Shown: positions 14,749-37,713 of the stretch, in pieces
How the letters are laid out: each line of letters starts with the position of its first letter
Position numbering within the stretch: position 1 is the first letter of the stretch
Origin: Ruminococcus sp.
Lineage (GTDB): Bacteria; Bacillota; Clostridia; Oscillospirales; Acutalibacteraceae
DNA: 64,000 nucleotides
NCBI GenBank assembly: GCA_017458845.1
Contig: JAFSZY010000041.1
Coordinates: forward strand, 24,524-88,523
Reading direction: 5' to 3'
Made by a program: the position numbers and the translations under genes
Notes under the pieces: model-generated
The model's input: only the letters and a program-made list of their open reading frames with translations
Told to the model about the DNA's origin: nothing
The model's database searches: none

Positions 14749-14754
14749 CAAAAG

Positions 14755-15237: not shown

Positions 15238-15348
15238 GTGAAAGAAAAACTATGACAAAGCATTAATGGTCTTGGCTTCCGAAGGATATACAATAATATA
15301 AGTTTCCGGTTGAGAGTACAGACTGATTATTGATAAGGATGTGAGATC

Positions 15349-16224
15349 ATGCACGACATCTGGAATCCGTGGCACGGCTGCAAAAAGTGCAGCGAGGGCT
15401 GCGAGAACTGTTATATGTACTTTCTTGACGCTCAGCGCGGCAAGAACGACGCGGACATCTACCGCACAAAAGCGGGTTTTAATTATCCACTGTCAAAGGA
15501 CAGAAGCGGACATTACAAGGTCAAAAGCGGCGAACAACTACGCGTGTGTATGACCTCAGACTTTTTCCTTGAGGAAGCGGACGAATGGCGTGTTGAAGCT
15601 TGGAATATCATCCGAAGCCGCCCCGACGTAGTTTTCTTTCTGCTGACAAAACGTCCTCAGAGAGTACGGGATTGCCTGCCCGATGATTGGGGCGACGGCT
15701 GGGAAAACGTCTTTTTCAACGTCAGCTGTGAGAATCAGAAGCGAGCCGACGAGCGTATCCCTATTCTGCTTTCCCTGCCGTTCAAGCACAAGGGAATTAT
15801 GTGTGCTCCGTTTATCGGCTCAGTGAGCATCCGTGAGTACCTCGCGACAGGACAACTCGAACAGGTGATATGCGACGGAGAAAACTACGCCGGAGCCCGC
15901 CCTTGTCATTATGAGTGGGTAAAGCAGCTGAGCGACGAGTGCCGGGAATTTAACGTCACCTTTGTTTTCTGCGGCACGGGAAGACGCTTCGTCAAGGACG
16001 GCAGAGAGTATCGGATCGAAGGAAACGCCTTACAAAGCGAACAGGCGCATAAATCGGAGCTTAGCTTTAAGGGCAAGCCAATCAATTTCAAGTTGACCCG
16101 ACAGCTCGGTTTCAAAATCGCCGACAAGGATTATTACAAGCCCTACTTCGGCGGGAAATGCCAAACCTGTGGAATGAAACCAATCTGCAACGGCTGCACC
16201 CGCTGCGGCAAATGCGAACAATAA
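15349..16224 (+). CDS. DUF5131 / phage Gp37-Gp68-family radical-SAM-like protein with a C-terminal Cys cluster
   Basis: WNPWHGCKKCSEGCENCYMY; LLTKRPQR; C-terminal CQTCGMKPICNGCTRCGKC. Confidence 0.85.
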   Translation: MHDIWNPWHGCKKCSEGCENCYMYFLDAQRGKNDADIYRTKAGFNYPLSKDRSGHYKVKSGEQLRVCMTSDFFLEEADEWRVEAWNIIRSRPDVVFFLLTKRPQRVRDCLPDDWGDGWENVFFNVSCENQKRADERIPILLSLPFKHKGIMCAPFIGSVSIREYLATGQLEQVICDGENYAGARPCHYEWVKQLSDECREFNVTFVFCGTGRRFVKDGREYRIEGNALQSEQAHKSELSFKGKPINFKLTRQLGFKIADKDYYKPYFGGKCQTCGMKPICNGCTRCGKCEQ

Positions 16225-16266
16225 ACCGACCTCTGTTTGGACTAAGAAATCCAAACGTAGGTTATC

Positions 16267-16317
16267 TTGACACTAATCCGAAATCGGACTATAATGACAT
16301 TGTCCGATTTCGGATTA
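16267..16317 (+). promoter_or_regulatory. Consensus promoter TTGACA-17-TATAAT with two palindromic operator copies (TCCGAnnTCGGA), probable MarR sites
   Basis: -35 at 16267-16272, -10 at 16290-16295; arms 16274-16289 and 16302-16317 form a perfect 16-bp inverted repeat. Confidence 0.85.
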
Positions 16318-16338
16318 ATTCTATTTAGGATGAGTGTT

Positions 16339-16785
16339 ATGAATAAAAAAGAAAAAGATTATTTAATCGCGCTGGGAACACAGGAAAAGCAGTTCGACGC
16401 GCTGTATAGAAAAGCGGCGTTAACATACGGCTTATCCGACTGCTCCATGTGGGTGCTCTACTTTCTGTCGCTCCACGGCGATATGACACAGCAGGAGATG
16501 ACCGGGTTGATGATGTTTCCAAAGCAAACAATCAACTCCGCTATCGGCAGTTTGCAAAAGAAAGGTTATGTCGCTTTTTCATCTGCAAAGGAAAGCTACG
16601 GCAGAAAGCGCGTCAGTCTGACTGCTGAGGGAAAAGCCCTTGTCGAAAAGACCGTTGTCAAAATGATGAACGCGGAGGAAAAGGCGCTGAAAGCGTTCGG
16701 ATATGAGAAAACAGAGCAGTTTATCGCATTGTATAAGGAATTCTATGACGCATTAACCAACAGCTTTGACGAGGTGTTGAAATGA
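16339..16785 (+). CDS. MarR-family transcriptional regulator
   Basis: TQQEMTGLMMFPKQTINSAIGSLQKKGYV..RKRVSLTAEG. Confidence 0.9.
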   Translation: MNKKEKDYLIALGTQEKQFDALYRKAALTYGLSDCSMWVLYFLSLHGDMTQQEMTGLMMFPKQTINSAIGSLQKKGYVAFSSAKESYGRKRVSLTAEGKALVEKTVVKMMNAEEKALKAFGYEKTEQFIALYKEFYDALTNSFDEVLK

Positions 16786-23496: not shown

Positions 23497-26400
23497 TTAT
23501 TTAACTTTTACCTTAACGGTCACCGTCTTAGATTTTGCCTTATAAGCTGTGTTGCCCTTAGCGGTAACTTTGATTTTAATCTTATATGTTTTGCCTTTCT
23601 TTAGTCCTTTCTTGACTGTCAGCTTACCCGTCTTTTTATTGATACTTATTTTGGAATTGCCTGAAACCTTCTTGTAGGTAACGGTACCCTTTGCATTTTT
23701 AACCTTGAGGACTTTGGACTTTGAGAAGGTTGTTTTCTTCGCAGCCTTTGCTGTGACGGTCTTGCCCTTTACGGTAAGCGTGTTGACGCGCTTGACAACC
23801 TTAATCTTGACGGACGCGGACTTACCGTTGTTGGTCGCCGTGATTATTACGGAGCCCGCCTTCTTGCCGACAACCTTGCCTGAGGATGTAACTGTGGCAA
23901 CCTTTGTGTTGCTTGACTTGAATGTTGTGCTGCCGACGCCGTTTGTCACCGAAGCGTAAACCTTAGTGGAAGCGTTTACATAGATTGTAGACTTTGTTGC
24001 CGCTGCGGCAATAGATGTCTGGTACTGCTGCTCGGTAGCCTGTGTTTCACCGGTTGATTGGGTATCTGTTTCAGGCTCGGTAGTCTGATTATCCGTAGTT
24101 GCCTGAGTGGCTTCGGTTGCCTCTGTATTCTCACCGGATTCAGTTGCCTGAGTTGCATCCGTCGTCTGAGTAGACTCAGTTGACTCAGTTGTTTCAGTGT
24201 TTCCTGTGGTTGCTTCAGTTGCCTCAGTTGCCTCAGTTGTCTGAGTTGCCTGAGTAGCTTCGGTGGTCTCGGTTGTTTCGGTTTTCTTTGTGATTACCGT
24301 TACGGAAACCTCGCCTTTAATCTTAGTCAGGCGATAAGTGTTTGCGAGAGTCGAGCTGAGATCCTTCAGATTCTTATAGTTAGTGTCCGGTGTCGCTGTA
24401 ACGCTTTCCACCTCATAACCGTCAGCGGGAACTACGGTAAAATTGACCTGACCGTCGCCCGAGCTGTCGGGTTCGCCCGTATCGCTGTTTCTCGAAACCG
24501 CCGAAATTACGTTTGTCGCGGAAGCCACGGAATAATCCTGTGTATTATATGTGTTAATTGTCGCGTTGCCGTCTGTGATGAAGCTTACAGTGTAGCCCTC
24601 GTCGGCAGTTGTCGCGGAAGTCGCTTCTGTGCTATCAGTTGTCTGAGCGGCTTCTGTTGTGGCTTCTGTCGCGCTTGTTGTCGCTTCTTCCTCAACATAC
24701 TCTGTAACCGTAGTGAGCGCGGGTATGGTCTTGTACTCAACCCGGCTTGAATCGGAGCAAGTGTACTTGAGCAAGCCTGTGCTTGATGTTGTCGCGGCGC
24801 TCACAACAGTACCGCTGTTCCAGCTGTGGGCCCAAGGGTTGCCCTTGGAGGTTGTAACGCTTGAAGCTGTGGAATATGAGGTGTTGGATGAGGTTGTGTT
24901 AGCGTCAGAGTAGAGAATATAGTTTACGTTTCTGAGGAGCTTTTCACTGCGAACCACACTGCCGCTTTGAGTTACGTTAATAACTGTGCCGGCTGAACGG
25001 CTTGTTGTTGAAACGTAATATTTCTGAGTGCCGGTCTGGGAGCTTGGGTTCTCGTTCATCGAATTTGTTCCCGCGGCGAAAACCGTGCCGCCTGTGATTG
25101 TAATCGTGCCGTCGCAGTCAAGGGGCGAGTTGTCGCCGCCTGTGGCTTGCGAAAGGACTGTCACATCGCCGCCTGAGATTTTGAGGTCGCCGTTTGAGTC
25201 GAGACCGTCGCCTGTACAGTTCACATAAACGTTGCCGCCATAGATGTTGATTGAGTAGTCGGATGAGCCCGAGCTCTGCTGGCCGCCCTGCTGACCGGGC
25301 TGATTTCCGCCCTGACCGGGACCGCCCTGGTTTCCGCCCTGACTGCCCTGACCGGGTCTGAACTGGTCGTTGCCGCCCTGTCCAGGGTCGGTGCCGTTGG
25401 AGCTGCCGCCTGCGGCGTTGATGCCATCGTCGGAAGCGTTGACATAAAACTTACCTGAGTAAATATTGACTACGGCTCCTTCTAAGCCCTCGTAGCTTGA
25501 ATTGACTGTAATCTCGGGGTCGCGGTCATAGCCGTTCTCTGTGCCGAGTGTGAGAGTAGCGTCGGCGTGGACGCCGTCGTCGCCTGTGTAGATATCAAAC
25601 GTACCGCCTGTGATTGTAATATAGCCGTTGGAGTGAACCGCGTCGTCGGCTGTGTTGAGGCTAAAGGTACCGCCCGAAATTGTCATAGTGTTTGTGGGGT
25701 TGTTCTCGTCAGTGACATTGTTGCTCGAAACCTTCAAGCCCTTACAGCTCATTGTATCCTTGTTAAAGGTTAAACTGCCGTATCCGTTTTCTGTTTTTAC
25801 GGTATAATCACCGTTTGTAATGGTGAGGTTCTCAGCCGCGACAATACCGTCGCCCTGAGCGTTGATATTAAAAGTACCGCCGTTGATTGTAACAGTACCC
25901 GCGGAGTCTGTGTCCCCCTCGTCGGGCTGGGACTTGATTCCGTCGTTTCCGGCTGTCACGTTGAATGTGCCCGCGTTGATTACGACGCTGCCGTCAAAGG
26001 CTATGCCATTGTTGGCGGCTGTGGCGTTTATAATTCCGCCGTCAACGATTAACGAAGATGTTGTGCCGCCCTTGATTGCGTTCTTGGGTGTGCCGACAGC
26101 GTTGAGCGTGCCGTCGCCGAAAATCGTGAGCGTTGAGCCTGCCTTGACCTTAATCGCCGCTCCCTCAAAGTCCGAGTTGGTCTCGTCGAGAGTTTCGTTA
26201 TCGGTGATTGTGCTTGTGCCCTCGAGCTTTAGAAGCACCGAACTCGACTTTTTCACAACTATCGGAGCTGTGCTTGCCGAGGTTAAATCGAGGTCATCGA
26301 GTATCAGCGTAACTCCGCTGAGACTGCCCTTAACGACAATCGCGCCCTCGGAGCAGCTGCCTGTCACACGATAGGTGCCCGCCTCGTTGATTGTGAGCGT

Positions 26401-26565
26401 TGCGCCGCTTATGGTATAGCCAGAGCCCGAAACGGTCTCGGTTATACCGCTGTCCGTGAATGTAAGCGTTGCCTGCTCAGCCGAGTACGCCGATGCCGTA
26501 AAAGGTATCATCGACAAAATCATAAGAGCCGCGAGTATTACGCTCAGAAGTCTGGTAGTTTTCAT
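23497..26565 (-). CDS. Cthe_2159 (DUF4353)-family beta-helix carbohydrate-binding surface protein with T/E-rich linkers, Big_2 and Lys-rich C-terminal module
   Basis: GSCSEGAIVV, repeated GDGI/DDAVHSNG/DDGVHAD/DDGINAAGG/GDGLDSNG/NSPLDCDG Ca-binding turns, G/Q-rich insert; start ATG 26565 with GGAGG RBS. Confidence 0.88.
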   Translation of the reverse strand: MKTTRLLSVILAALMILSMIPFTASAYSAEQATLTFTDSGITETVSGSGYTISGATLTINEAGTYRVTGSCSEGAIVVKGSLSGVTLILDDLDLTSASTAPIVVKKSSSVLLKLEGTSTITDNETLDETNSDFEGAAIKVKAGSTLTIFGDGTLNAVGTPKNAIKGGTTSSLIVDGGIINATAANNGIAFDGSVVINAGTFNVTAGNDGIKSQPDEGDTDSAGTVTINGGTFNINAQGDGIVAAENLTITNGDYTVKTENGYGSLTFNKDTMSCKGLKVSSNNVTDENNPTNTMTISGGTFSLNTADDAVHSNGYITITGGTFDIYTGDDGVHADATLTLGTENGYDRDPEITVNSSYEGLEGAVVNIYSGKFYVNASDDGINAAGGSSNGTDPGQGGNDQFRPGQGSQGGNQGGPGQGGNQPGQQGGQQSSGSSDYSINIYGGNVYVNCTGDGLDSNGDLKISGGDVTVLSQATGGDNSPLDCDGTITITGGTVFAAGTNSMNENPSSQTGTQKYYVSTTSRSAGTVINVTQSGSVVRSEKLLRNVNYILYSDANTTSSNTSYSTASSVTTSKGNPWAHSWNSGTVVSAATTSSTGLLKYTCSDSSRVEYKTIPALTTVTEYVEEEATTSATEATTEAAQTTDSTEATSATTADEGYTVSFITDGNATINTYNTQDYSVASATNVISAVSRNSDTGEPDSSGDGQVNFTVVPADGYEVESVTATPDTNYKNLKDLSSTLANTYRLTKIKGEVSVTVITKKTETTETTEATQATQTTEATEATEATTGNTETTESTESTQTTDATQATESGENTEATEATQATTDNQTTEPETDTQSTGETQATEQQYQTSIAAAATKSTIYVNASTKVYASVTNGVGSTTFKSSNTKVATVTSSGKVVGKKAGSVIITATNNGKSASVKIKVVKRVNTLTVKGKTVTAKAAKKTTFSKSKVLKVKNAKGTVTYKKVSGNSKISINKKTGKLTVKKGLKKGKTYKIKIKVTAKGNTAYKAKSKTVTVKVKVK

Positions 26566-26740
26566 AGTGTTGTCCTCCAATCATTATGTTCAGGGAATTG
26601 CCTTTCCCTTAGTTTACATATTAAGCTTAAATAGTATATGTGATATGTTTTTGAACACAATCTGTTTTATTTTGAAAAGTTTTGCGAAATAATCATCTCT
26701 GTGTATAAATAATACAAAAGAAATCTTGAAGTTTTATTGC

Positions 26741-26793
26741 AAAAATCATAACCACCCGTCAAACGGGTGGTTATGATTTTTGCAATCAAATCC
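26741..26793. repeat. Long perfect hairpin (23-bp arms) whose core AACCACCCGTCAAACGGGTGGTT resembles IS200/IS605-type terminal palindromes
   Basis: ATTGCAAAAATCATAACCACCCG-tcaaa-CGGGTGGTTATGATTTTTGCAAT is seen directly; no transposase nearby. Confidence 0.6.
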
Positions 26794-27030
26794 AAGCTAT
26801 GATATCTATGAACTGATGAAGATAGGTAACCTGTCCCAAATTGAGTAATCCTCGCTGTCGTTCCTAGCTTGCCGAGGAGTCTCCTTCCTCTTATATCCGC
26901 GTAAGGGCGGGTGTCTCTTCCTAAAGCGGAGACGGACTTTGTTTATCCACGTCATACACTGTATTTCCAACTGAAATGTATTTCTCCACGGACATTTTCT
27001 CGTGATTGCAATAAAGGCGCGACATATTAT

Positions 27031-27065
27031 AACACAGAGCCGACTATTGAGTCAGCTCTGTGTTT
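27031..27065 (-). terminator. Terminator of the kinase/FHA operon
   Basis: ACACAGAGCTGACT-caat-AGTCGGCTCTGTGT with a G-U pair on the minus strand. Confidence 0.75.
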
Positions 27066-27099
27066 GTAAGCTTAAAATATTCACCTAATACAGCGTCGT

Positions 27100-28374
27100 C
27101 TATGCGAACAGAGTTGCTTTTCTCCACGCGCCGTAGTATGTTTTGCCGCCTATTTTCTTATAAGCTCTGATGCGAATGTAATAATAATAACCTGAAACCG
27201 TCTTAATCTTAGCGCTACTGGCATAACTTGCCAATTTTGCGGATGAAGTATACTTTGAGGCAAAATTCTTTTTAGTGGAAACCTGTAAATTATAACCCGT
27301 ACAGTTAGCTTGCTTCTTGAACGAGATATTCAGGTATCCTTTTTTTACGGTTTTCTTAGTTATAGCAACCTGACCCGGCTTGACCAGTATGGTTACTTTC
27401 TTGGTTTTCGCCTTATACTTAGTGGTTTCCTTAGCTTTGATTGTTATTACTGCCTTACCGCAACCCTTAACAGTAACCTTGCCCGATGAAGAAACCGCAG
27501 CGACCTTCTTGTCGCTTGATTTGTATGTCATTTTGGTTTTTGCCTTAGCTCCGAGAGAGAACGGGGACGCGCCGTATTTTTTTGTAAAAGAGCTTTTACC
27601 CTTAATAGTCTGGTTACTCTGAACTGTTACGGTTACCTTAACACTGCCAATAATCGTTTCATCTCCCGTAATATTCTCATAAAGCTTAAAGTTAAGAGTT
27701 GTCTTTCCTCTTTTAACTCCCGTAAGGGTAAACACCGCGGTATCTTCTGCCCATTTTTTAAAATCAATTTTCACTAAACTGTTATTATTCCATGATACGC
27801 CAAAATACTTAGGATAGGTTCCGTCGGGATAAATCTTCAAGGTAGCAGTGTTTGTACCAGATAAATTTAATTTAAAATTCTTTTTGCTGGCAACAGTCTT
27901 AGTATTGCAAACCAAAACCCCTACTGTTGTGCTTGCAATGGTTGTTTCGTTCGGATCGTCAGAGTCGTAAATACTGAATTCAATTTCAACCGCATCAACA
28001 GCTTTGCCTGTTAAAGACAATACAGCGCTGTCACCTTCCCATCTCACAAAAGTGACATTTAGCGCGCTTTTATTGTTGTTTGACCAAGCAATAGTATAGT
28101 TATTGGGATAATAACCCCCGGGCGTAACTTTAATCTGAGCTGTTCTGGTACCGTTAAGATTCAGCACAACAATGCTCTTATCCACTGTAAGCTTGCTGTC
28201 TGCGCCGGTTGGTTCCTTCGCAATTGAGGAACTACTCTTTTTTGCAACCTCGACTTTACCGCTTTCTCCCGCCGATGAGGAAGATTTAAATGCCTCTTGC
28301 GCGGACACGCTGAAAGTTGAGAGCGTTATCAACAGCGCCAGTAAAACACTTGTAAGTATTTTTAGCTTTTTCAT
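27100..28374 (-). CDS. Secreted protein with two Ig-like repeats, Big_2 and a basic Fn3-like C-terminal domain
   Basis: Signal peptide; internal repeat (TAQIKVTPGGYYP.. / TATLKIYPDGTYP..); YKSSDKKVAAVSSSGKVTVK; YYYIRIRAYKKIGGKTYYGAW; AT-rich. Confidence 0.82.
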   Translation of the reverse strand: MKKLKILTSVLLALLITLSTFSVSAQEAFKSSSSAGESGKVEVAKKSSSSIAKEPTGADSKLTVDKSIVVLNLNGTRTAQIKVTPGGYYPNNYTIAWSNNNKSALNVTFVRWEGDSAVLSLTGKAVDAVEIEFSIYDSDDPNETTIASTTVGVLVCNTKTVASKKNFKLNLSGTNTATLKIYPDGTYPKYFGVSWNNNSLVKIDFKKWAEDTAVFTLTGVKRGKTTLNFKLYENITGDETIIGSVKVTVTVQSNQTIKGKSSFTKKYGASPFSLGAKAKTKMTYKSSDKKVAAVSSSGKVTVKGCGKAVITIKAKETTKYKAKTKKVTILVKPGQVAITKKTVKKGYLNISFKKQANCTGYNLQVSTKKNFASKYTSSAKLASYASSAKIKTVSGYYYYIRIRAYKKIGGKTYYGAWRKATLFA

Positions 28375-28427
28375 ATAATTGCCTCCTAAAATATATTTAT
28401 AAATAGTCATTCGACCGTTTATACTGC

Positions 28428-29273
28428 TTAGTATTCGATGGTAGGTTTAACGGGTTCGGGATTCTGCGACGGTGTCGCGCTTGACGAGCTGTTGCTCGGA
28501 ACGTAGTTATAGGTCGAATCGTTAACCTCAGGGGTATAATCCGCCTGTGAAGATGAAGATTGCGGCTGTGGCTTTTTGCCCTTGCTTACAACGAGAGTGA
28601 TGGTCGAATTGATTTTGACGCTTTCTCCCGCCTTGTTCTGACGTATAATCTTGTCCTTTGATACAGATGAACTGTACGCCCTCTTGACCTTATACTTAAG
28701 CTTTGCGTCAGAGAGCTTTTTCTTGGCGGCGGAAAGCGTTTGTCCCTTTACATCGGGGACTTGCACCATCCGGACTCCCTTGCTGATAACAACGGAAACC
28801 TTTTCGCCTTTTTCAGCCTTATCTCCTGCTTTTTTGTCCTGCCGGATGACGCAGCCCTTATCGACAGAATTGTTGTATTCTTCACTGCCGACAACAAGCT
28901 CCAATCCAAGATATTTCAGAGCCTCCTCGGCGTCAGCCCGGGTTTTACCAATCAAGTCGGGATACGTAATCTGCTTGCCGCTGCTCACTATCAGCGCCAT
29001 TGTTTCGGATGATGATATCTCCGAGCCCGCGTCAAAGCTCTGATCGACCACAAGTCCCGCCTCAACAGTATCGGAAAAGGTTGTCTCCACGGAATAATTT
29101 ACACCCGCGCTTTTAAGCGATTGCTCCGCTTCCTCTCTGGTCGCGCCTATGCACGAGGGAACCTTAACGGTTTTCTCTCCGCAAGACGCCATAACCCCTG
29201 TGAACAAAAGCGCCGCCATAATAAGCGGAAGTATTTTCCTGAATAATACGGGATACATGCTCTTTGTTTTCAT
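28428..29273 (-). CDS. Lipoprotein with three PASTA domains and an S/P-rich tail
   Basis: Lipobox MASC; KVPSCIGATREEA, YPDLIGKTRADA, QVPDVKGQTLSAA repeats. Confidence 0.88.
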   Translation of the reverse strand: MKTKSMYPVLFRKILPLIMAALLFTGVMASCGEKTVKVPSCIGATREEAEQSLKSAGVNYSVETTFSDTVEAGLVVDQSFDAGSEISSSETMALIVSSGKQITYPDLIGKTRADAEEALKYLGLELVVGSEEYNNSVDKGCVIRQDKKAGDKAEKGEKVSVVISKGVRMVQVPDVKGQTLSAAKKKLSDAKLKYKVKRAYSSSVSKDKIIRQNKAGESVKINSTITLVVSKGKKPQPQSSSSQADYTPEVNDSTYNYVPSNSSSSATPSQNPEPVKPTIEY

Positions 29274-29283
29274 AAACACCTCT

Positions 29284-30753
29284 TTAAAATCTTAATACAA
29301 AAGCAGAATTACCTGCCCTGATTTCATCGCCGCTTCTGAGCCGATTCCGTGAATAAATCTTCATCTCACCAATCGCGGTGTTCGAGCGTCCGCCCACGTC
29401 CTCTATATAAACTACACCTTCGCTTATAAACACGCGGGTATTTACGGACGACAGAGCCGCGTCGTCAAAGACAATGTCGCACGAACGCCTTCTTCCTATA
29501 AATAATTCATCCTTAAGGTATATGGTGTCGCCGCTGTTAAGGCAATTGCCGTTAATGACCTCAAGCTTTATTTCTATGGCGTCCCGGCTCTTTTTCGCGC
29601 CTCGTTTTCCTGTAAGCGCAAACACTGTCACCGCCGCGATTATCACAACCGCCGCGGCTGCCGCTAATATAATCCATAACGTAAAACCATTATTCCGAGC
29701 TGCGAGCTTGGTTTTATTTGACTCGCTGTTAACAGTTGAAGATGCAGGCTGAGTTGCTTTGCTTGCATGAGAAGCCGACGTTTCTGTTTTTGATTTTGTC
29801 GTTGACTTTGTTCCTGATTTTACTTTTGAGCACGCGTCAATATTGGCTATGCCTGAAACCGCAACAGCTTTATCGGCATTGTCCGCGTTGAAGGACGCGT
29901 CAAACCGCTTTGTTTCAGCGTCGATATCAATCGGGAAGCTGAGCATATATAGGTTTTGGACAAACTTCGCCAATTGCTTTCCCGCGGCGGCGCTTTCATA
30001 AACATCCGCCGCCGTAACATTGATTCCCGTACCCGATGACAGCGCTTCTATGGTAGGCTCGTGCCATGTGCCAAAGCCTACAGTATGAACCGCGACCTCG
30101 GGCGTAGCTTTGATTAGCTTCTTAACTTTTTTAGCAGAGTTTTCTATTTTTTCATATGGATTATCGTTGTTATCAAGATATGGAATACCGTCTGTAATTA
30201 CAATAAGATTAGCAAGCTCCTCGTGACCTTTGATACTATGCGAAAGATACTTTACGGCGTTTGCTACGTTGCCCGAAATATCCGTCATTTCGCGGTCATA
30301 TTTTATTTTGTTGATAGCCGACATAACCCTCGAGGGCTTTTTCAGCTTTTTCGCTATAATCTTAAGCTTGCTTCCGAAAACCGCGACAGTAACGCGCTTT
30401 GACTTGGATTTTTCCTCGTCAAGCAGAGTCTGGACGAAGGCTTTGATTCTGTCCTGATACTCCAGCATCGAGGAAGAAGCGTCAACCAGAAGCATATAGT
30501 CAATGGTCGCCGCGCTGTTGCCGGGAGTCCTGAATAACTCGTCCTTGACAACCTTTTTGCCGACAGTGACGGAAGCCTTGCCGCCAAACGACTTTTTCAC
30601 GTTTTGGGGATTGACATAAGCCGAAATAATACCATCGTGATAATACGCGGAAACTACCGAAAAGACGGAATTTTGATAAGCGGCTTGCGCGGAAACACCC
30701 GCCGAAATAACTATGGCAAATATAATGAAAAACGCCGCTATTCTTTTTGGCAT
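29284..30753 (-). CDS. Membrane protein: signal peptide, vWA domain, S/T/K linker, TM helix, cytoplasmic (degenerate) FHA domain
   Basis: MIDAS LLVDASSSM and LIVITDG; TM LWIILAAAAAVVIIAAVTVFAL; FHA IGRRRSCD..LSSVN (no His)..LRSGDEIRAG. Confidence 0.85.
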   Translation of the reverse strand: MPKRIAAFFIIFAIVISAGVSAQAAYQNSVFSVVSAYYHDGIISAYVNPQNVKKSFGGKASVTVGKKVVKDELFRTPGNSAATIDYMLLVDASSSMLEYQDRIKAFVQTLLDEEKSKSKRVTVAVFGSKLKIIAKKLKKPSRVMSAINKIKYDREMTDISGNVANAVKYLSHSIKGHEELANLIVITDGIPYLDNNDNPYEKIENSAKKVKKLIKATPEVAVHTVGFGTWHEPTIEALSSGTGINVTAADVYESAAAGKQLAKFVQNLYMLSFPIDIDAETKRFDASFNADNADKAVAVSGIANIDACSKVKSGTKSTTKSKTETSASHASKATQPASSTVNSESNKTKLAARNNGFTLWIILAAAAAVVIIAAVTVFALTGKRGAKKSRDAIEIKLEVINGNCLNSGDTIYLKDELFIGRRRSCDIVFDDAALSSVNTRVFISEGVVYIEDVGGRSNTAIGEMKIYSRNRLRSGDEIRAGNSAFVLRF

Positions 30754-30771
30754 ATAAAGCCCCCTTTAGAA

Positions 30772-31485
30772 TTAAACAAAAACGGTAATCAACGAGAGAT
30801 TGTCACAGTCCTCGGGCTGTCTCTCCATAACGCGCATAAGCATAAGCTCTCCCCACTGACGGGCGGAGTCTGATTTTAAAAAGTCAACAAGAATCTCTTC
30901 TTGGCGGATATATTCCCACATTCCGTCCGAGCAGAGCAAGAACCCGTCGCCGTTTTTTATCCCGCTGCTGTCCAGCGCAGGAGTATTGCGCTCGCTGCCG
31001 ATAGCGCGCAAAAGTCGTGATTGATCCTCATCGAGAGCAATTTCGTCGTAGAAAATCTCACCCGCTTTGTACTTCTTATACGCGACGGAATGATCCTCGG
31101 TTATTCTTTTTATTTCACTGTTGCCTATATAGTACAACCTTGAATCTCCGATATGAGCCCAATACGCCTTATCGCCGTTTATTATCAGCGTAATAACTGT
31201 TGTGCGCATAGCGGCGTCTGTCTCCTCCTGAAGCGCGGTTACTTCGTCCTGCGCTTTTTTGAGAGTTTCCTCCAGCCAGTCAGAGATTTCCGTGTCGGGT
31301 TTTGGAGGAAAAGCATCGCAAAGAACCTTGACAACGCGATTTGAGGCAAGCTCGCCGTGCTGATGACCTCCGAGGCCATCAGCAACTACGAACAATGCTT
31401 GGTTTTCTGATTCTTTTATCTGCGCGCAATCTTCATTGTAAGGACGTCCGCCTGTATATGAAAATACGAAGCTGTCAGATTTCAT
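30772..31485 (-). CDS. PP2C-family Ser/Thr phosphatase
   Basis: GGRPYNED, VVADGLGGH, HIGDSRLY, LLCSDGMW, DNLSLI. Confidence 0.93.
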   Translation of the reverse strand: MKSDSFVFSYTGGRPYNEDCAQIKESENQALFVVADGLGGHQHGELASNRVVKVLCDAFPPKPDTEISDWLEETLKKAQDEVTALQEETDAAMRTTVITLIINGDKAYWAHIGDSRLYYIGNSEIKRITEDHSVAYKKYKAGEIFYDEIALDEDQSRLLRAIGSERNTPALDSSGIKNGDGFLLCSDGMWEYIRQEEILVDFLKSDSARQWGELMLMRVMERQPEDCDNLSLITVFV

Positions 31486-31488
31486 ATA

Positions 31489-32925
31489 TTACTCCACTTC
31501 AAGAACAATCATATTGGCCTGTTCACCGAGGAAGAAACGGTCGCCCGCTCTCAGCTTATGCGAAATACCGGATGTCAGCTTTGTGCCGTTTTGAAGTACT
31601 GTTCCGTATGACGAGCCTAAATCAGTTACTGTAAACTCATTTGAATTCGGGTCATATGAAACAGAACAATGTCTTCCACTTACGCCCGGTGTACCTTCTT
31701 TATAAACAATAGCACAATCCGCCTTGCTTCTACCTATAATAATCTGGTTGTTAGGCTGAAGTTTAACTCTCATACCTCTGTGCTGCATAGCCAGCGAACG
31801 AACATATCCGCTCTTGGGCTTTGGAGCGTCCTGATGAAGGGTATTGGCGGGAGCTGCCGGCTTGGACTTTTTCTTAATAACAAGAATAATAATAACAACT
31901 GCCGCAGCGATTACAACTGCCGCCGCAACGCCGATAACAATGAATACCCATATGCTGTTGGATTCAGATTTCGGAGTGGGTGTTGGTTGTGGAGAAGTAG
32001 GCTTAGGCGAGGTTTCTCCCATAAACGCTACATTGTTATTCTTCAACATATCGATTGCTTCCGAAATATTAACACAATACTTGTTTGTTTCCTCGGGTAC
32101 AAGAACGCCCTGACTATTAAACTTATATCTTTCTACTATCCGAGACGCAATACCTATAACGTTACCGTTTTCGTCCACTCCGGGACCGCCAGAATGTCCA
32201 GACTGAATATCACAGGTGGTTTCGATATGGTTTGTTCCTGAGCCGCTCTCCACAAAGAGCTTTCCGATAATTCCGTCCTTTACGCTTGCCGCGGATATAT
32301 CACTTATTTTGGTGGGCGAAACGATACTGTTTGAGCTAATACCCGGGTATCCGAGAACATACATCTTATCGCCGACCATTTCGTCCTTGGGAGTGTGAAG
32401 CGGAATGGGTTTACGCTTATTTGTGGGTTCAGCAAGCTTAAGAATCGCGACATCTTTTTTTGCGTCTGAATCTACAACATAAAGCTCCTCGTAATCGTTG
32501 CTGTCGAATATACCGTAAATCTTAGCTCTGCCTTCATAGTACGCGTTTTTATCGACATCAAAAATTGTGGTTATTTCGCCCGCGCCGCATTCTGTATACA
32601 AATCAACAACGTGCTGGCAGGTTAATAAGTACTGTGGATTGGTAGTTTCATTTTCCGCCACAAAGAAGCCCGTACCCGAGCCTGCGGTATAGAGCATATT
32701 CCCCAATTCCTTGGGATTATCTAAGATAATATCAATACGGTCTTTGATTTTTTCCTGAGGAACACAGTTATAATGCTGTGTGCCGCCGTCAACATCCTCA
32801 AATATTACATAAACCATAATAAGGCTGTCTCTAGCCTCGTTTTGTGAGCTGGCAGCCATAGCGGGAACCGCTAAGGAAGCAAGCACAAAAATTGCTACAA
32901 TAATAGAAATAATCCTTTTTGCCAT
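31489..32925 (-). CDS. Membrane protein: signal peptide, trypsin-like serine protease, P-rich linker, TM helix, cytoplasmic FHA domain
   Basis: GSGTGFFV, LTCQHVV (His), DVAILKL (Asp), GHSGGP (Ser); TM IWVFIVIGVAAAVVIAAAVVIIILVI; FHA IGRSK..VSGRHC..DLGSSYGT. Confidence 0.9.
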   Translation of the reverse strand: MAKRIISIIVAIFVLASLAVPAMAASSQNEARDSLIMVYVIFEDVDGGTQHYNCVPQEKIKDRIDIILDNPKELGNMLYTAGSGTGFFVAENETTNPQYLLTCQHVVDLYTECGAGEITTIFDVDKNAYYEGRAKIYGIFDSNDYEELYVVDSDAKKDVAILKLAEPTNKRKPIPLHTPKDEMVGDKMYVLGYPGISSNSIVSPTKISDISAASVKDGIIGKLFVESGSGTNHIETTCDIQSGHSGGPGVDENGNVIGIASRIVERYKFNSQGVLVPEETNKYCVNISEAIDMLKNNNVAFMGETSPKPTSPQPTPTPKSESNSIWVFIVIGVAAAVVIAAAVVIIILVIKKKSKPAAPANTLHQDAPKPKSGYVRSLAMQHRGMRVKLQPNNQIIIGRSKADCAIVYKEGTPGVSGRHCSVSYDPNSNEFTVTDLGSSYGTVLQNGTKLTSGISHKLRAGDRFFLGEQANMIVLEVE

Positions 32926-32940
32926 TGTTTTTTCTCCTTA

Positions 32941-33774
32941 TCAATATTCGCACTTTACAACAAGCGCGGTGTAATTATCCTGATATCTTTTGTTTGTAAT
33001 TAAAATATTCTGTTCCAATTGCTCGCACATCTGCGCGGGAGCGGTATTATTGTTCAAACAGTCAAATATGCACTGCTCACTTAGAACTCCGCCGACTCCG
33101 TCGGAACATAGCAAGAACACATCTCCGTCCAAAACCGGAAGCGGACGTCTGGAAATGTCAAAATCCTCGAGCTCATCCATACCCAAAAACCTTGTCAGAG
33201 CGTGCTTTTCGGGGTCGCTTTCAGCGTCGGTTTTGTCAAGACTGCCCCTGCTGACAGCGTTTAGATACTCGTCGTACATAACATTGTGCTTTCGGTTAAG
33301 ATGTATAAGATGACCGTTGCGCTTCAACATAAGGTAGCTGTCACCTACCGAAGCAAAATAAAGCTTTTCCTTATAAAACAAGCAGGCGATAAGCGTGCTC
33401 CCTCCGTCTCCGCCGAGAAGCCCGTATATTCTCTCGCTTGCCGAAAAAACGCTTTGTTCAAGCTGTTCGGCTAAATCCAGCGAATAATCAAAGGCTTCAA
33501 AGTCGTTTCGCAGGCTCGCGACAGCGGTGTCGCTGGCAAGCTTGCCGCCTTTCATTCCGCCCATTCCGTCGGTTACTATAGCCAAAAGACCCTTGTTCTT
33601 GATTTTTGTGACGTCCAGAACATTGGCGAAGCCAAAGGAATCCTCCTGGTTACTGCGTTTGCCGATGCCCTGAAGATTAGCCGCTTGATAGCTCAGGCAA
33701 TCCGCCTTAAACGCCTTCACGGGTGTAACCGTCCGGGGTTCAGCCTGATGTTTTCTCCTTGAAAACAACCACAT
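32941..33774 (-). CDS. PP2C-family Ser/Thr phosphatase (second copy)
   Basis: GKRSNQEDS, IVTDGMGG, SVGDSYL, LLCSDGV, DNYTAL. Confidence 0.93.
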   Translation of the reverse strand: MWLFSRRKHQAEPRTVTPVKAFKADCLSYQAANLQGIGKRSNQEDSFGFANVLDVTKIKNKGLLAIVTDGMGGMKGGKLASDTAVASLRNDFEAFDYSLDLAEQLEQSVFSASERIYGLLGGDGGSTLIACLFYKEKLYFASVGDSYLMLKRNGHLIHLNRKHNVMYDEYLNAVSRGSLDKTDAESDPEKHALTRFLGMDELEDFDISRRPLPVLDGDVFLLCSDGVGGVLSEQCIFDCLNNNTAPAQMCEQLEQNILITNKRYQDNYTALVVKCEY

Positions 33775-33775
33775 A

Positions 33776-34444
33776 TTAACTCTCAGCTATTACGCCGTCC
33801 TCCCATGTAAAGCGGCTTGAGCACAAGGGAACAAAAACAGCCTTGCTCTTACCAAGCTCAACCGTATCATACGCGTTAAGCTTGACAGGAATATATACAG
33901 GTTCTTCGTTAACATAAATGTTGTTTGTGCTGTCGGCGGGAATGAGCTGGAAGTTGTTGTGCTTCGGGTCATACGCGAGTCTGGCGTGGTTTTCCTTGGA
34001 TATAGTTTTATCCTTTTTGATGCAAACATCCATCTTCTCGCTTCTGCCGATAGTGTTAATCTTTGCCCAAAGCTTGTAATCCTTTCCTTTCTCGGGGCCG
34101 TCAATGCAAACCAGCCAGCCGACTACGGGGTCAAGATTATAGTCCTCCTTGAACACACCTACTGTTTTGTTTTCCTCATCGGAACGCTTGCGATAGCTTT
34201 CGGGAGCAACGGTTTTTTCGGGCTCATTGGAATTAACCGCGTAATTCACCGCCTCAGTATTGCCCATCGCGCCCATATAAGGCTCCTGCGGCAAACCCTG
34301 ACCCGGAATAACGGTTTTTCCGATATCACCGTCGGCACCGTTATAATTAAAATCAATAATGTTTCTTCCACCGTTGCAGTACGGACAAGTCGCGTACTGG
34401 TCGGTATCATAAACATGCCCCTTTCCACATTCTGTAATAGCCAT
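33776..34444 (-). CDS. Soluble FHA-domain protein with N-terminal Zn-ribbon and disordered linker
   Basis: CGKGH..CPYC; VVGWLVCIDGPEKGKDY; IGRSE..ISKENH..STNN; start ATG 34444 with AAGGAGG RBS. Confidence 0.9.
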   Translation of the reverse strand: MAITECGKGHVYDTDQYATCPYCNGGRNIIDFNYNGADGDIGKTVIPGQGLPQEPYMGAMGNTEAVNYAVNSNEPEKTVAPESYRKRSDEENKTVGVFKEDYNLDPVVGWLVCIDGPEKGKDYKLWAKINTIGRSEKMDVCIKKDKTISKENHARLAYDPKHNNFQLIPADSTNNIYVNEEPVYIPVKLNAYDTVELGKSKAVFVPLCSSRFTWEDGVIAES

Positions 34445-34495
34445 ATTTTCCTCCTTGTAATATGAATATTTTAGCACTGCGGTAGTGCTTATTTA

Positions 34496-36373
34496 TTAAT
34501 ATGTTGTGATTACCAAAGTACTGTCAAAGCTGTTTTCGGAATAAGAACAGTCCTCGGATATCTCGATGTTTTTCAGAGAATCGCACGCTAAAAACGCGTA
34601 GTACTCTATGCTGGTTACAGTATCGGGGATGGTGACACTGGCCAGATTTTTGCTGCCGTAAAACGCCCATTTGTCGATTGCCGTCACTCCCTCGCCGATG
34701 CTTATAGATGTGATATCCGACTCATAAAACGCCTTAGTGCCGATTTCGGTAACAGTCATACCATCGATGCTTTCAGGTACGACAACATCCTTTTCTTCGC
34801 CCGTGTAGCCCGTTATTGTTATTCCGTTATTATCGTTAACAGAATAGCTGAAGCTGTTATAGCTCGTGTTTTCTCCCTCTTGATTGCCCGACACTACAAC
34901 AGCCACAGTAACACCCGCAGTCACTATAATAACAGCCGCGAGCGCTATTGCCGCAATCATCAACACCTTGGGGTTAATACGTTTTTTTGCCGTAGTGTTA
35001 GCGTCGGACTTTTGAAGCTCGTTTTTTCTTTGTTCCTTCTCGAGTTTCTTTCGTTCAGCTTCAAGCTGTTTTTTCTTTTCTTTTTCTTCCTTAGCGAGCC
35101 TTAAGCGTTCCTGCTCTTCCTTTTGTTTCTTCTCTCGCTCAATACGCTTTGCTTCCTGTTGTTTTTTCTTCTCCTGTTCTTTTCTTTCACGTTCCCTGCG
35201 TTCCTCTTCTTTGCGCTCTTGCTCTTTTCTTTCGCGTTCCTGTCTTTCATTTTCGGAGCGCTCCCGCTCGGCGCGCTCCTGCTCTAAGCGTTCTTTTTCA
35301 AGCCTTTCCTGTTCCTCTTCTTGCTGTGACTGTCTCAATTGCTCCTGCCTGTTTTGAGCCTGAACCGCAGAATTATAGTAACCGGCTCGAGGAGTATACT
35401 CGCTGATGGTCGGCATCACATTTGCCGATGTAAACGCGTTTTTAAACTCCAGCATATTTTGAAATCTGTCAGCAGGATATACGGATAACGCTTTAACCAG
35501 CGCGTCCTCGTCAGTTTTTGAAATACTGATTCCCAGATTACCGGGATAAATCAAGTCATCCTCGTCCATTCTTTCTACGGAATCAGGCGGTATCTTCCCC
35601 GTAATCGAACGGTAAAAGGTAGCCGACAGGGAATAAATATCCGTGTAGGGTCCCTGTCTGCCCCTGCGGGTATACTGCTCCTTGGGAGCGTATCCGTGCT
35701 TTAGAACCACATCGAGGCTTCGGCTTTTGTCGCCCAGGCTGTATCTTGCCGCGCCGAAATCAAGGAGCTTGATACTGCCATCCTCGGTGATATAGATATT
35801 ATCGGGACTTATATCTCTGTGTATTATTCCCTTTGAGTGGACATCCGACATAGCGTCCATTATGGGAAACAGAATATTCTTTGCCGCCGCGACGCTTATT
35901 TTGCCGCCGTTGTTCTTCAGATAGGTTTGCAGACTAATACCCTTGATGTACTCCATAACAAAATACGCGGTATTATTCTCTTCAAAATAGCTGTATACCC
36001 TGACAATGTTGGGGTTACCTATAAACTCCGCAAGCGTTTTTGCTTCGTTGAGAAAACATTCTTTTCCGTAATTAAAGCTGTCGGCTCTGTCGTCGGAATA
36101 TGTAGAAACGGTTCTCGACTCTATTCTGGTTGCCAGCGTTTCAGGGAAATACTCCTTTACAGCGCAGATCTCTTTGGTCTGATAGTTTTGGGCAACATAG
36201 GTTATTCCGAATCCGCCTTGTCCCAGCACCCGTCCTACAATGTATCTGCCCGCGAGTATAGTCCCCTTCGGCAGAGCGACGGGGTATTTACCCTTATCCT
36301 GAGACACATTATATCCGCAGCCGGGACATACGCTGCCCGAGTGCTCGTTAAAACAGTTGTAGCAAATATTCAT
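34496..36373 (-). CDS. Hanks-type Ser/Thr kinase: Zn-ribbon, kinase, E/R/K/Q-rich helix, TM, extracellular LRR_5 (BspA-type) domain
   Basis: CYNC..CPGC; LGQGGFGITY, AVKEY, HRDISPDN, DFG, YAPKEQ; TM VLMIAAIALAAVIIVTAGVTVAVVV; VVVPESIDGMTVTEIGTKAF..VTIPDTVTSIEYYAF. Confidence 0.93.
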   Translation of the reverse strand: MNICYNCFNEHSGSVCPGCGYNVSQDKGKYPVALPKGTILAGRYIVGRVLGQGGFGITYVAQNYQTKEICAVKEYFPETLATRIESRTVSTYSDDRADSFNYGKECFLNEAKTLAEFIGNPNIVRVYSYFEENNTAYFVMEYIKGISLQTYLKNNGGKISVAAAKNILFPIMDAMSDVHSKGIIHRDISPDNIYITEDGSIKLLDFGAARYSLGDKSRSLDVVLKHGYAPKEQYTRRGRQGPYTDIYSLSATFYRSITGKIPPDSVERMDEDDLIYPGNLGISISKTDEDALVKALSVYPADRFQNMLEFKNAFTSANVMPTISEYTPRAGYYNSAVQAQNRQEQLRQSQQEEEQERLEKERLEQERAERERSENERQERERKEQERKEEERRERERKEQEKKKQQEAKRIEREKKQKEEQERLRLAKEEKEKKKQLEAERKKLEKEQRKNELQKSDANTTAKKRINPKVLMIAAIALAAVIIVTAGVTVAVVVSGNQEGENTSYNSFSYSVNDNNGITITGYTGEEKDVVVPESIDGMTVTEIGTKAFYESDITSISIGEGVTAIDKWAFYGSKNLASVTIPDTVTSIEYYAFLACDSLKNIEISEDCSYSENSFDSTLVITTY

Positions 36374-36608
36374 TCCGCAATCTCCACTTCAAGATAATCC
36401 TATTATTGTCAGCTTCCGCGCCGTTATTTTTAGCACAAAAATTCATCGTTAATTACCGGGTTGTAATTAAGCATAATTTATTTATATTATAATAAATATT
36501 TCACAAGATTTCAATATGTTTTTATATTTTTTTAACATAAATAGTATTAATAAGTATTGGATAATATTGCCTCAAAGTTTTATGCTTTTATCATTAGAGG
36601 TGATATAT

Positions 36609-36938
36609 GTGAACGAGCTTACTCAACTTGTCGCGAAAAGAATAAGAACGCTCAGAAAAGAAAAAGGATACACTCAGGAAAGTCTTGCGTTTGAGGCTAA
36701 TATGCACCCGGCTCAAATCGGACACATAGAGCGGGGAATACAAAGTCCGACAATAGATACAATCGAGAAAATCATCAACGCGCTCAACATCAGCATACAG
36801 GATTTCTTTGATTTTGATGATATAAAAATAAGCGGCGAAAATACACTGAATCTGTTTTTAAACACATTATCCAAAGATGAAATCAATGATATCTCAACAA
36901 TTTTAATAATTCTGAAAAAATGGAAAACAAAGGAATAA
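36609..36938 (+). CDS. XRE-family HTH transcriptional regulator, divergent from the kinase operon
   Basis: RIRTLRKEKGYTQESLAFEANMHPAQIGHIERG; GTG start with AGAGGTG RBS. Confidence 0.88.
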   Translation: MNELTQLVAKRIRTLRKEKGYTQESLAFEANMHPAQIGHIERGIQSPTIDTIEKIINALNISIQDFFDFDDIKISGENTLNLFLNTLSKDEINDISTILIILKKWKTKE

Positions 36939-37089
36939 GAACTTAAACGGCGGTTCTAAACCAAGAGATTTTGAACCGGATTTTTGCGCAAAAAATACGG
37001 GAGGCTGTAAACCTCCCGCGGTCTGCGTATATATAACATAGAGCGGCAAATAGCAGAAAAGCTCTAAAAAAGGAGGGGTTGTCACGCGC

Positions 37090-37713
37090 TTAGCGCGACA
37101 GCTCCTCCTTTTGCTTTTTGATAACTTTCATTCTGGAGAATTCCTCTCTGTCCTTTTCGTCGAGAGCATCAGTGATGAATTTAACCGTCTCCTCAAATTT
37201 GGGTATCATAATATTTTTCAGAGCGTTGGCGCGCTTCTGAGTTTTCTTAATGGAATCAGCAAGACGATAAACACTGTTCTCAATCTCGGCGAGGTCGGCT
37301 GTGAGCACCTTAACCTCGGTGAACTTCTCGAAAGCGTTGTCCAGCGCGGTGGTGGTAGAGTTGAGTCCGAAATAGAGCCGGCTCCTGTCGGGCGCGTCCA
37401 TCTTAACAATCGGGATTTCAACGCCCATTACCGAGCGGTAATCGAGCGACAGCGACTCCTCCACGGGAATACTCTTACTGATTTCGGAGCAATAGCCGTG
37501 GATTATGTTAGCCGTCTGAAGCGCCTGATAAGCCTCGGCGTAGGTACCGTCGATTTTGCTCTGAATCGCGTTAGCTTTATCTATGAGCATCATCATCTCT
37601 CGGATGAGAATATTGCGCTTTTTGTCCATAAGCTCATATCCCATCTTTGCGAGAGCTAATGATTTTTTTGTATTCATCAAATTGCCCTTGGTGGGCACAG
37701 CCTGAACAGCCAT
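37090..37713 (-). CDS. atpD: V/A-type ATP synthase subunit D
   Basis: PTKGNLM..GYELMDKKRNIL; KTQKRANALKNIMIP. Confidence 0.95.
   Translation of the reverse strand: MAVQAVPTKGNLMNTKKSLALAKMGYELMDKKRNILIREMMMLIDKANAIQSKIDGTYAEAYQALQTANIIHGYCSEISKSIPVEESLSLDYRSVMGVEIPIVKMDAPDRSRLYFGLNSTTTALDNAFEKFTEVKVLTADLAEIENSVYRLADSIKKTQKRANALKNIMIPKFEETVKFITDALDEKDREEFSRMKVIKKQKEELSR

Follow-up and report, generated by a model that had tools for sequence, protein, structure and literature searches.

Among the commensals that dominate the gut are the Oscillospiraceae and Lachnospiraceae, and little is understood of the ways in which these bacteria sense their surroundings. This question is raised in a concrete form by a group of genes in Ruminococcus sp. 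(contig JAFSZY010000041.1 of assembly GCA_017458845.1), of which we analyzed a stretch of 64,000 nucleotides, hereafter referred to as the window. At 27100–36373, eight co-oriented open reading frames (ORFs) on the minus strand encode a membrane Ser/Thr kinase, two PP2C phosphatases, three FHA proteins, a PASTA lipoprotein and a surface protein, and a gene for an XRE-family regulator diverges from them. What kind of signaling do these genes carry out, and to which known system are they related? The window contains a real, intact gene cluster for transmembrane phospho-threonine (pThr) signaling, the function of which is predicted from the sequence. The cluster is widespread and uncharacterized, and it is built from familiar signaling parts. 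Its conserved unit comprises six genes, and its kinase is placed in the PpkA branch of Ser/Thr kinases, which makes the PpkA/PppA/Fha pathway of the type VI secretion system (T6SS) the closest known system.

The locus had been described before in a prediction made from the letters of the window (the original prediction). The eight co-oriented genes, their gaps of 1–53 bp (which vary with the start codon chosen) and the divergent XRE gene were found as described, with the coordinates collected in Table 1. Pfam supports every named domain, and together with signal peptides, transmembrane (TM) segments and positive-inside charges it agrees with the membrane topology that had been proposed. The claim that the cluster is a dedicated pThr module rather than the housekeeping PrkC/Stp pair was also borne out: the kinase scored 155.6 on the NCBIfam model PknB_PASTA_kin, for which the cutoff is 450, and the match was limited to the kinase part.

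Table 1. Positions of the cluster genes and of the associated signals in the window
Feature	Position	Strand	Evidence
Membrane Ser/Thr kinase	34496-36373	-	Pkinase 6.7e-34, LRR_5 3.2e-18 (Pfam)
Cytoplasmic zinc-ribbon-FHA adaptor	33776-34477	-	FHA 1.4e-10 (Pfam)
PP2C phosphatase A (PP2C-A), N-terminal extension	32941-33774	-	Pfam, NCBIfam
Type I membrane protease-TM-FHA protein	31489-32925	-	Trypsin_2 7.4e-23, FHA 9.3e-14 (Pfam)
PP2C phosphatase B (PP2C-B), Stp1/PstP-like	30772-31485	-	Pfam, NCBIfam
Type I membrane vWA-TM-FHA protein	29284-30753	-	VWA_2 1.1e-10, FHA 9.4e-9 (Pfam)
Stand-alone lipoprotein, three PASTA repeats	28428-29279	-	PASTA 1.2e-43 (Pfam)
Secreted immunoglobulin (Ig)-like/fn3-like surface protein	27100-28410	-	weak Big_2 only (Pfam)
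Divergent XRE-family helix-turn-helix regulator	36516-36938	+	HTH_3 1.1e-16 (Pfam)
Sigma-70-like promoter 5' of the kinase gene	36486..36514	-	TTGAAA, 17 nt spacer, TATAAT
Hairpin after the last gene (15-bp)	27031-27064	-	folding free energy (dG) -24.6 kcal/mol, z -7.3

Conservation of the gene order

A genome scan with the alignment of the protease-FHA protein, restricted to one genome per species, yielded 33 loci from Clostridia (L006–L038), and maps of the related clusters were made with tblastn, with a threshold of E ≤ 1e-4 for the detection of vWA genes. The hosts belong to Oscillospiraceae, Lachnospiraceae, Gemmiger, Roseburia, Agathobacter, Marvinbryantia, Ruminococcus flavefaciens, Ruthenibacterium and Allofournierella. 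The original prediction had proposed synteny across Oscillospiraceae and Lachnospiraceae as a check, and the order kinase, zinc-ribbon-FHA, PP2C-A, trypsin-TM-FHA, PP2C-B, vWA-TM-FHA is indeed conserved there. It is present in L001–L005 at 27–76% protein identity and in most of L006–L038, some of which are vWA-less or otherwise variant. All relatives of the vWA-TM-FHA protein (27–43% identity) are encoded in this same six-gene order, and the order including the vWA protein was counted at approximately 20 distinct loci in the two families. Its recurrence in dozens of genomes at low identity puts the arrangement far beyond chance. The gene junctions are tight (1–18 bp) both in the window and in the related clusters.

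The loci follow two arrangements. Type A, which is window-like, consists of one to five kinases, zinc-ribbon-FHA, PP2C-A, trypsin-TM-FHA, PP2C-B and vWA-TM-FHA, often followed by an RDD-FHA membrane protein and further kinases. In type B (L027–L034), the order is zinc-ribbon-FHA, PP2C-A, PP2C-B and trypsin-TM-FHA, usually with a short and a long kinase, and a DUF805-FHA protein comes first in four of the eight loci. When the two arrangements are compared, the constant core is the zinc-ribbon-FHA protein, two PP2Cs, the trypsin-TM-FHA protein and at least one kinase. Neither the RDD-FHA nor the DUF805-FHA protein is encoded in the window. An extra membrane-anchored FHA protein was observed at L008:7673-8452, in L018, L023, L025, L026 and L037, and in L030–L032.

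The self-contained unit of eight genes that had been proposed was thus reduced to six, because the PASTA lipoprotein, the surface protein and the XRE gene have no counterpart in any related cluster on the tblastn maps. We regard these three genes as lineage-specific and outside the conserved core. Databases label the cluster proteins with generic domain names only, and full-text literature searches returned no paper describing this cluster.

The kinase and its cytoplasmic and surface partners

The kinase begins with a Cys4 zinc ribbon (CxxC...CPxCG), which is followed by the kinase domain, a linker of approximately 120 residues and, at the C-terminus, a TM segment and a small extracellular BspA-type LRR domain. 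In a comparison with all solved structures, PpkA (5hnv) was the best match with 170 bits (E = 7.9e-49), while StkP scored 92 bits and PknB 77 bits. The margin of PpkA over the next solved relative is therefore 78 bits, and derived motifs common to both kinases, the HRDISxDN loop among them, can be seen in the alignment. A Burkholderia kinase encoded amid TssJ/K/L/M-TagF genes (L058) is 43% identical to the window kinase and carries the loop HRDIAPDN. From these matches we assign the window kinase to the PpkA branch and not to PrkC/PknB.

The core motifs GQGGFG, CAVKE, HRD, DFG and APKE are all present, at positions with a conservation of at least 90% among 54 relatives. The catalytic loop reads HRDISPDN and lacks the usual Lys; a loop of the form HRD[IV][STA]P[DE]N, with S, T or A at the Lys position, is found in 52 of 55 family kinases. 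PpkA is an active kinase despite having lost the same catalytic-loop Lys (PMC5995506). Because the loss is family-wide and is shared with an active kinase, we read it as a mark of the branch and not as a defect. The catalytic and metal-binding motifs of the cluster had originally been described as intact, and this stands for the His/Asp/Ser triad of the protease (36 of 36 relatives), for the metal-ion-dependent adhesion site (MIDAS) of the vWA domain (D91, S93, S95, T157 and D188; 19 of 19, counting a single exchange of S and T at three of these positions) and for the five metal-binding Asp residues of PP2C-A and of PP2C-B (34 of 34 for each), but for the kinase it has to be amended by the missing Lys. 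Such constancy indicates that the active sites of protease, vWA domain and phosphatases are maintained by selection.

In contrast to the constancy of the cytoplasmic partners, the kinase ectodomains vary widely. Among 54 kinases scanned, DUF5050 was found in nine, LRR_5 in eight, LRR_8 in six, MORN in three, a pectate-lyase-like domain in three, and PASTA, YARHG and RHS in two each. The ectodomains are interchangeable, with LRR as one sensor option among many, and the LRR ectodomain, which the original prediction had stressed, is not a defining feature of the system. Tandem kinase paralogues are common, with up to five per locus. Varied ectodomains above constant partners fit a design in which many inputs are fed into one shared core.

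Several observations on individual kinases accompany this picture. L020:2-8144 encodes five tandem kinases, all with LRRs, and L023 and L026 encode four each, which flank the core on both sides. In L001–L003, the gene directly upstream of the kinase (L001:1-3201) encodes a 2277-residue S-layer-homology surface protein rich in BspA-type LRR_5, the same repeats as in many family kinase ectodomains. The kinase at L035:2038-4875, which adjoins a related cluster, lacks a detectable TM segment and has a P-loop (GSGSGKTT) behind its kinase domain; the only NACHT match of the 54 scanned kinases is probably due to it. The linker of the window kinase (34990-35356, residues ~340–462) is near-pure E/R/K/Q over ~120 residues and looks like a single long charged helix, and the linkers of relatives at the same position are Pro/Gln/Gly/Thr-rich, low-complexity and mutually unrelated. 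The closest plasmid or chromid matches, from Azospirillum (~45% identity), proved to be lone kinases beside unrelated genes and were dropped, so the PpkA branch has lone members as well. These Azospirillum kinases, of which one is encoded on an Azospirillum brasilense replicon (L059:9001-9879), are seemingly without a membrane sensor, and their neighbors include a YdbH-like protein and an O-GlcNAc-transferase-like TPR protein.

Of the three FHA proteins, two are membrane-spanning. The protease protein consists of a signal peptide, an extracellular trypsin-fold serine protease, a TM segment and a cytoplasmic FHA domain, and the vWA protein of a signal peptide, an extracellular beta-sandwich with the vWA domain, a Ser/Thr-rich stalk, a TM segment and a cytoplasmic FHA-fold domain. 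In both, the signal peptide and the single TM segment followed by Lys/Arg (the positive-inside pattern) place the protease or vWA domain outside and the FHA domain inside. The nearest solved relatives of the protease are the Deg/HtrA proteases and the membrane-associated serine protease of Mycobacterium tuberculosis (3k6y). Because it has no PDZ domain and scores far below the cutoffs of the HtrA, DegP, DegS and MarP models, we class it as HtrA/MarP-like without PDZ and with an intact catalytic site, and not as a member of the HtrA/DegP family. Its FHA domain has the canonical pThr-binding residues, with Gly, Ser and His in 36 of 36 relatives and Arg in 32 of 36. For the protease-FHA protein, 235 representatives were counted at 50% identity (E ≤ 1e-30), and of the 150 representatives listed, nearly all match from the protease through the FHA domain. 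The proteobacterial trypsin matches (L039–L057) have no cluster partners.

An AlphaFold2 (AF2) model of the vWA protein, with a confidence (pLDDT) of 73, shows the beta-sandwich and the vWA fold. In a Foldseek search, the ectodomain matched ITIH1, the ArnAB complex of archaea and an ArnB paralogue best, and vWA domains of anthrax receptors were matched as well. Its FHA domain has kept the fold, whereas the pThr-contacting residues are mostly gone: Arg is present in 5, Ser in 6 and His in 3 of 19 family members. The window protein, which keeps Arg and Ser and has Asn for His, is the least degenerate copy. Given this loss of phosphate-binding residues, the domain is probably not a pThr reader, and the original proposal that phosphorylation recruits the vWA adhesin is weakened.

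The third FHA protein is the cytoplasmic adaptor, with an N-terminal CHCC zinc ribbon. Its true start is likely the Met at 34444, which gives 222 residues, the length of a database protein that is 100% identical to it. At least 1191 distinct relatives were found, which databases call only "FHA domain-containing protein". Among 119 sequences, no variation was seen in CPYC, T94 (in KTVGVF), GR and H, and the conservation of T78 (in TVAP) is at least 90%; both Thr motifs lie in the disordered linker upstream of the FHA domain (222-residue numbering). The pThr-contacting residues of the FHA domain are canonical (GR in 35, S in 32 and H in 30 of 35 relatives). In sequence and fold, this domain is nearest to GarA/OdhI (TM-score of 0.84–0.90), and it also resembles the self-binding FHA domain of DgcB. 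It scored 34.9 bits on the NCBIfam OdhI model, for which the cutoff is 200; the adaptor may work like GarA while being a non-member of the GarA/OdhI family. The phosphosite of GarA is the motif ETTSVF. KTVGVF and TVAP resemble this motif as well as the PpkA site P-pT-V-V in TssL (PMC5995506), and T94 and T78 are our best candidates for phosphosites.

PP2C-A and PP2C-B are only 27% identical to each other, and each is 42–66% identical to its own counterparts elsewhere. This low identity points to old paralogues that have been kept separately.

Proposed mechanism, known systems and alternatives

The assignment of the kinase to the PpkA branch provides a well-studied biochemical model and with it predictions on phosphosites and on pThr-binding versus non-binding FHA domains. 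In the T6SS pathway, PpkA has an extracytoplasmic vWA domain and is activated by dimerization. FHA proteins are its targets or pass on its effect: Fha1 or TssL is phosphorylated on Thr, binding of the pThr by FHA triggers assembly, and the PP2C PppA counteracts the kinase by reversing this (PMC3224232, PMC5995506). We consider it fairly probable that the window cluster is a Gram-positive version of this PpkA/PppA/Fha threonine-phosphorylation switch without a T6SS. A ligand on the variable kinase ectodomain would cause dimerization and autophosphorylation, as described for PpkA, and the kinase would phosphorylate Thr residues in TVAP and KTVGVF of the adaptor linker, the best candidates, and in disordered juxtamembrane segments. 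The canonical FHA domains of the adaptor and of the protease tail would then dock on pThr, which would bring kinase, protease and adaptor into one transmembrane complex. The vWA protein would probably join through its degenerate FHA fold without phosphate and could be a co-receptor, as the vWA domain fused to PpkA may be. The adaptor would act as a GarA-like switch that relays the state of the complex to a cytoplasmic target, and the two PP2Cs would reset the system. The output would be post-translational, namely surface proteolysis or adhesion, in addition to the adaptor switch.

Several findings weigh against this switch. The activation loop of the family kinases has no Thr, which removes candidate FHA docking sites there. 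The juxtamembrane linkers are not conserved, the window linker is an E/R/K-rich helix with few Thr, and a search for a conserved Thr motif in the juxtamembrane linkers of the family found none. The AF2 model of the adaptor does not place the KTVGVF segment confidently (pLDDT ~60) and is uninformative as to a docking of this segment on the FHA domain. Both PP2Cs are generic Stp1/PstP-like enzymes and not specifically PppA-like. No target apparatus or cytoplasmic target is encoded near the cluster in approximately 30 loci. Finally, no vWA gene was detected in the type B loci at the tblastn threshold given above, which makes the vWA protein not essential to the core.

No characterized relative had been named in the original prediction; the T6SS pathway now takes this place, with ArnA/ArnB and GarA as further analogues. 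The cluster and the T6SS pathway of Pseudomonas, Serratia and Agrobacterium share the kinase branch with its lost catalytic-loop Lys and the combination of a membrane kinase, a PP2C, an FHA protein and an extracytoplasmic vWA domain (PMC3224232, PMC5995506). They differ in that tssJ-M, hcp, vgrG and clpV are absent from the window cluster and its flanks, and none of them recurs in ~30 related loci. PpkA has the vWA domain fused to the kinase, whereas the window has it on a separate TM-FHA protein and an LRR_5 ectodomain on the kinase. The T6SS pathway uses one FHA protein and one PP2C, whereas three or four FHA proteins and two PP2Cs are found here, together with an extracellular protease, in a Gram-positive host and with PP2Cs that are not specifically PppA-like.

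The other analogues match single parts. GarA/OdhI, an actinobacterial FHA switch with an N-terminal phospho-acceptor motif, resembles the adaptor in FHA fold and sequence and in the upstream Thr motif KTVGVF, but the adaptor has in addition a CHCC zinc ribbon and no link to 2-oxoglutarate metabolism. In Sulfolobus, the zinc-ribbon-FHA protein ArnA is likewise encoded with a vWA-plus-beta-sandwich protein, ArnB, kinases and a phosphatase (PMC6509490). ArnB, however, is cytoplasmic and is bound by ArnA at its phosphorylated C-terminus, whereas the window vWA domain lies outside the membrane, and the archaeal system uses ArnC/D kinases with PP2A rather than PP2C and regulates the archaellum.

Four alternative explanations were weighed. 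The original prediction had proposed inside-out signaling, in which the FHA tails of the protease and of the vWA adhesin allow phosphorylation in the cytoplasm to recruit or activate both proteins, with effects on cell contact or surface remodeling. This proposal overlaps with the PpkA-like switch and differs in direction alone. The FHA domains inside and the protease and vWA domains outside fit it, as do the canonical FHA domain of the protease protein and the strict conservation of the protease triad and the MIDAS. Most relatives of the vWA protein, however, have lost the Arg, Ser and His of pThr binding, nothing hints at how a single TM helix would pass activation outward, and the variable kinase ectodomains argue for external input, so we consider this direction unlikely. 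A regulator of cell-wall growth or division that senses peptidoglycan fragments, comparable to the actinobacterial FhaA-FhaB-PstP-PknA-PknB system or to Firmicute PrkC/Stp, appears quite improbable to us. The actinobacterial operon has the order fhaA-fhaB-pstP-...-pknA-pknB, which the type B order (FHA, FHA, PP2C, PP2C, protease-FHA, short kinase, long kinase) resembles. Two of the FHA proteins have FhaB/FipA as their top NCBIfam match, and for the third it is the best match among FHA families, in all cases below the cutoff; PASTA repeats occur on two family kinases and on the window lipoprotein. With PrkC/StkP/PknB and Stp/PstP, the cluster further shares the pairing of a Hanks-type membrane kinase with PP2Cs, which are Stp1/PstP-like. 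Yet rodA, pbpA and ftsW are absent from all clusters and their surroundings, the kinases belong to the PpkA and not to the PknB/PrkC branch, and most ectodomains are adhesin-like (DUF5050, LRR, MORN, pectate-lyase-like, RHS). The PASTA repeats of the window sit on a separate lineage-specific lipoprotein, the rsgA neighborhood is absent, and a canonical PP2C-PrkC-RsgA locus is present separately in a related genome.

The gene content also echoes the TerY-P triad, in which a vWA protein and a PP2C accompany a Ser/Thr kinase that likewise bears a zinc ribbon (PMC10542128), and this raises the question of a role against phages or in conflicts between bacteria, related to TerY-P or to kinase-based defense. 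Such a role would be consistent with PADLOC matches of the kinase to PD-T4-6 and mad6, of the protease to the RT-protease and LmuA models and of PP2C-B to PDC-M21C, with the variable sensor-kinase paralogues, one of which matches NACHT (L035), and with the integrative element that adjoins the cluster in L001–L003. We nevertheless hold it to be very unlikely. The PADLOC matches of kinase, protease and PP2C are generic, those of the kinase reflecting the kinase fold only, and the adaptor and the vWA protein have no PADLOC match (E ≤ 0.01 for the latter). The zinc ribbon or OB fold is C-terminal in the TerY-P kinase, whereas the ribbon of the window kinase is N-terminal; the TerY-like vWA protein is cytoplasmic, whereas that of the window carries a signal peptide together with a TM segment. 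The window cluster further includes FHA proteins and a protease, and the ter or restriction-system context is missing. The extracellular position of protease and vWA domain is unlike that of the cytoplasmic effectors of known systems, and the cluster encodes no nuclease or killing effector. In the window it is flanked by housekeeping genes, e.g., those of a V-ATPase, and in a search of 2.9 million viral contigs it was essentially absent, with one weak match to the protease domain alone. Finally, we find it highly improbable that the cluster exerts post-translational control over a machine for secretion or surface assembly whose genes lie elsewhere in the genome, in the way that PpkA/Fha controls the T6SS. 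Such a role would agree with the PpkA-like kinase and with weak matches of the FHA domains to models of the type III secretion system (YscD cytoplasmic domain) and of the T6SS (TagH), whereas apparatus genes do not recur beside the cluster in ~30 loci. To our knowledge, no T6SS is present in this phylum.

The placement of the kinase in the PpkA branch also shows that PpkA-type signaling is not tied to type VI secretion, and an extracellular protease or vWA domain tethered to a cytoplasmic FHA domain, which is an uncommon design, could be a general way of coupling phosphorylation to the cell surface. A bolder extension, which we put forward very tentatively and rather doubt, is that in many gut Clostridia an extracellular serine protease and a MIDAS-vWA adhesin are controlled through their FHA tails by a whole set of PpkA-type kinases, the adhesin-like ectodomains of which are interchangeable, and that the T6SS phosphorylation pathway is a specialized offshoot of this older module. 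If so, commensals could use contact with host, glycan or neighboring cells as a cue to switch their adhesion or surface processing.

Lineage-specific genes, expression signals and flanks

The PASTA lipoprotein aligns to residues 339–563 of the NCBIfam PASTA-kinase model, i.e., to its TM and PASTA part. It has one close relative (99% identity), and its more distant relatives lie in unrelated contexts or form the tail of a split canonical PrkC. L017 encodes a PpkA-branch kinase whose PASTA ectodomain shows 38% identity to the lipoprotein. From this identity and from the position of the lipoprotein gene, we infer that it could be the remnant of a second, PASTA-bearing kinase. The Ig-like surface protein shares only a generic C-terminal domain with one L017 protein. 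Both are local additions that are probably co-transcribed with the core. At L062:972-4876, in a related genome, a canonical PP2C-PrkC-RsgA locus was observed in which the kinase (267 residues) and the PASTA part (465 residues) form two overlapping ORFs, either through a frameshift or through an assembly error.

The ORF of the XRE gene is probably over-extended. The true start would be a GTG at 36609 behind the ribosome-binding site AGAGGTGA, which gives a typical helix-turn-helix protein of 109 residues and a divergent control region of 235 bp. AT-rich palindromes were seen in the region between the XRE and kinase genes at 36447-36458 and 36480-36499. The promoter of the kinase gene, which is the best site of the scanned region, agrees with the consensus at 11 of 12 positions and is identified by this consensus match only. 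The spacing of the genes suggests that the cluster is co-transcribed; the sequencing runs that contain the region are DNA only, mostly gut metagenomes, with no RNA runs among them.

A single terminator had been placed at the end of the operon. The 15-bp hairpin after the last gene is a probable terminator, for none of 200 shuffled sequences folded equally well, but it has only a weak U tract and was not among the sites listed by the terminator scan. An Rfam scan of 26000-37500 gave spurious eukaryotic matches only.

In the flanks of ~30 loci, the only recurrent genes were those of ABC ATPases, which recur by chance, and of an unnamed protein of ~370 residues in seven loci. This protein (~350–380 residues) is encoded beside kinases at L023:934-1971 and L026:2-1066 and in L027, L029–L031 and L035 (436 residues), and thus in both arrangements. 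It has no Pfam match, and an XRE-like helix-turn-helix (RNWLSG...IAFALGLSE) can be recognized by eye; it may be a regulator that the XRE gene replaces in the window. Directly downstream of the cluster in the metagenome contigs L001–L003 (~11600–17600) lies an integrative or mobilizable element that encodes two integrases, a DnaB-like ATPase and a relaxase or NikA-like protein, and in L002 and L003 a ToxN toxin gene is located just past the element, at ~18.3–19.1 kb.

Between the cluster hairpin and the next gene, the window has a gene-free stretch of 286 nt on the minus strand (26740-27025), which is predicted to fold well, with a dG of -89 kcal/mol (z -4.1). It contains short ORFs only and has no Rfam match. 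A promoter-like site with an extended -10 element lies at its 5' side (27055..27026), and a strong terminator lies near 26750. The stretch could encode a small RNA or form a leader for the gene of a 1027-residue surface protein at 23497-26580.

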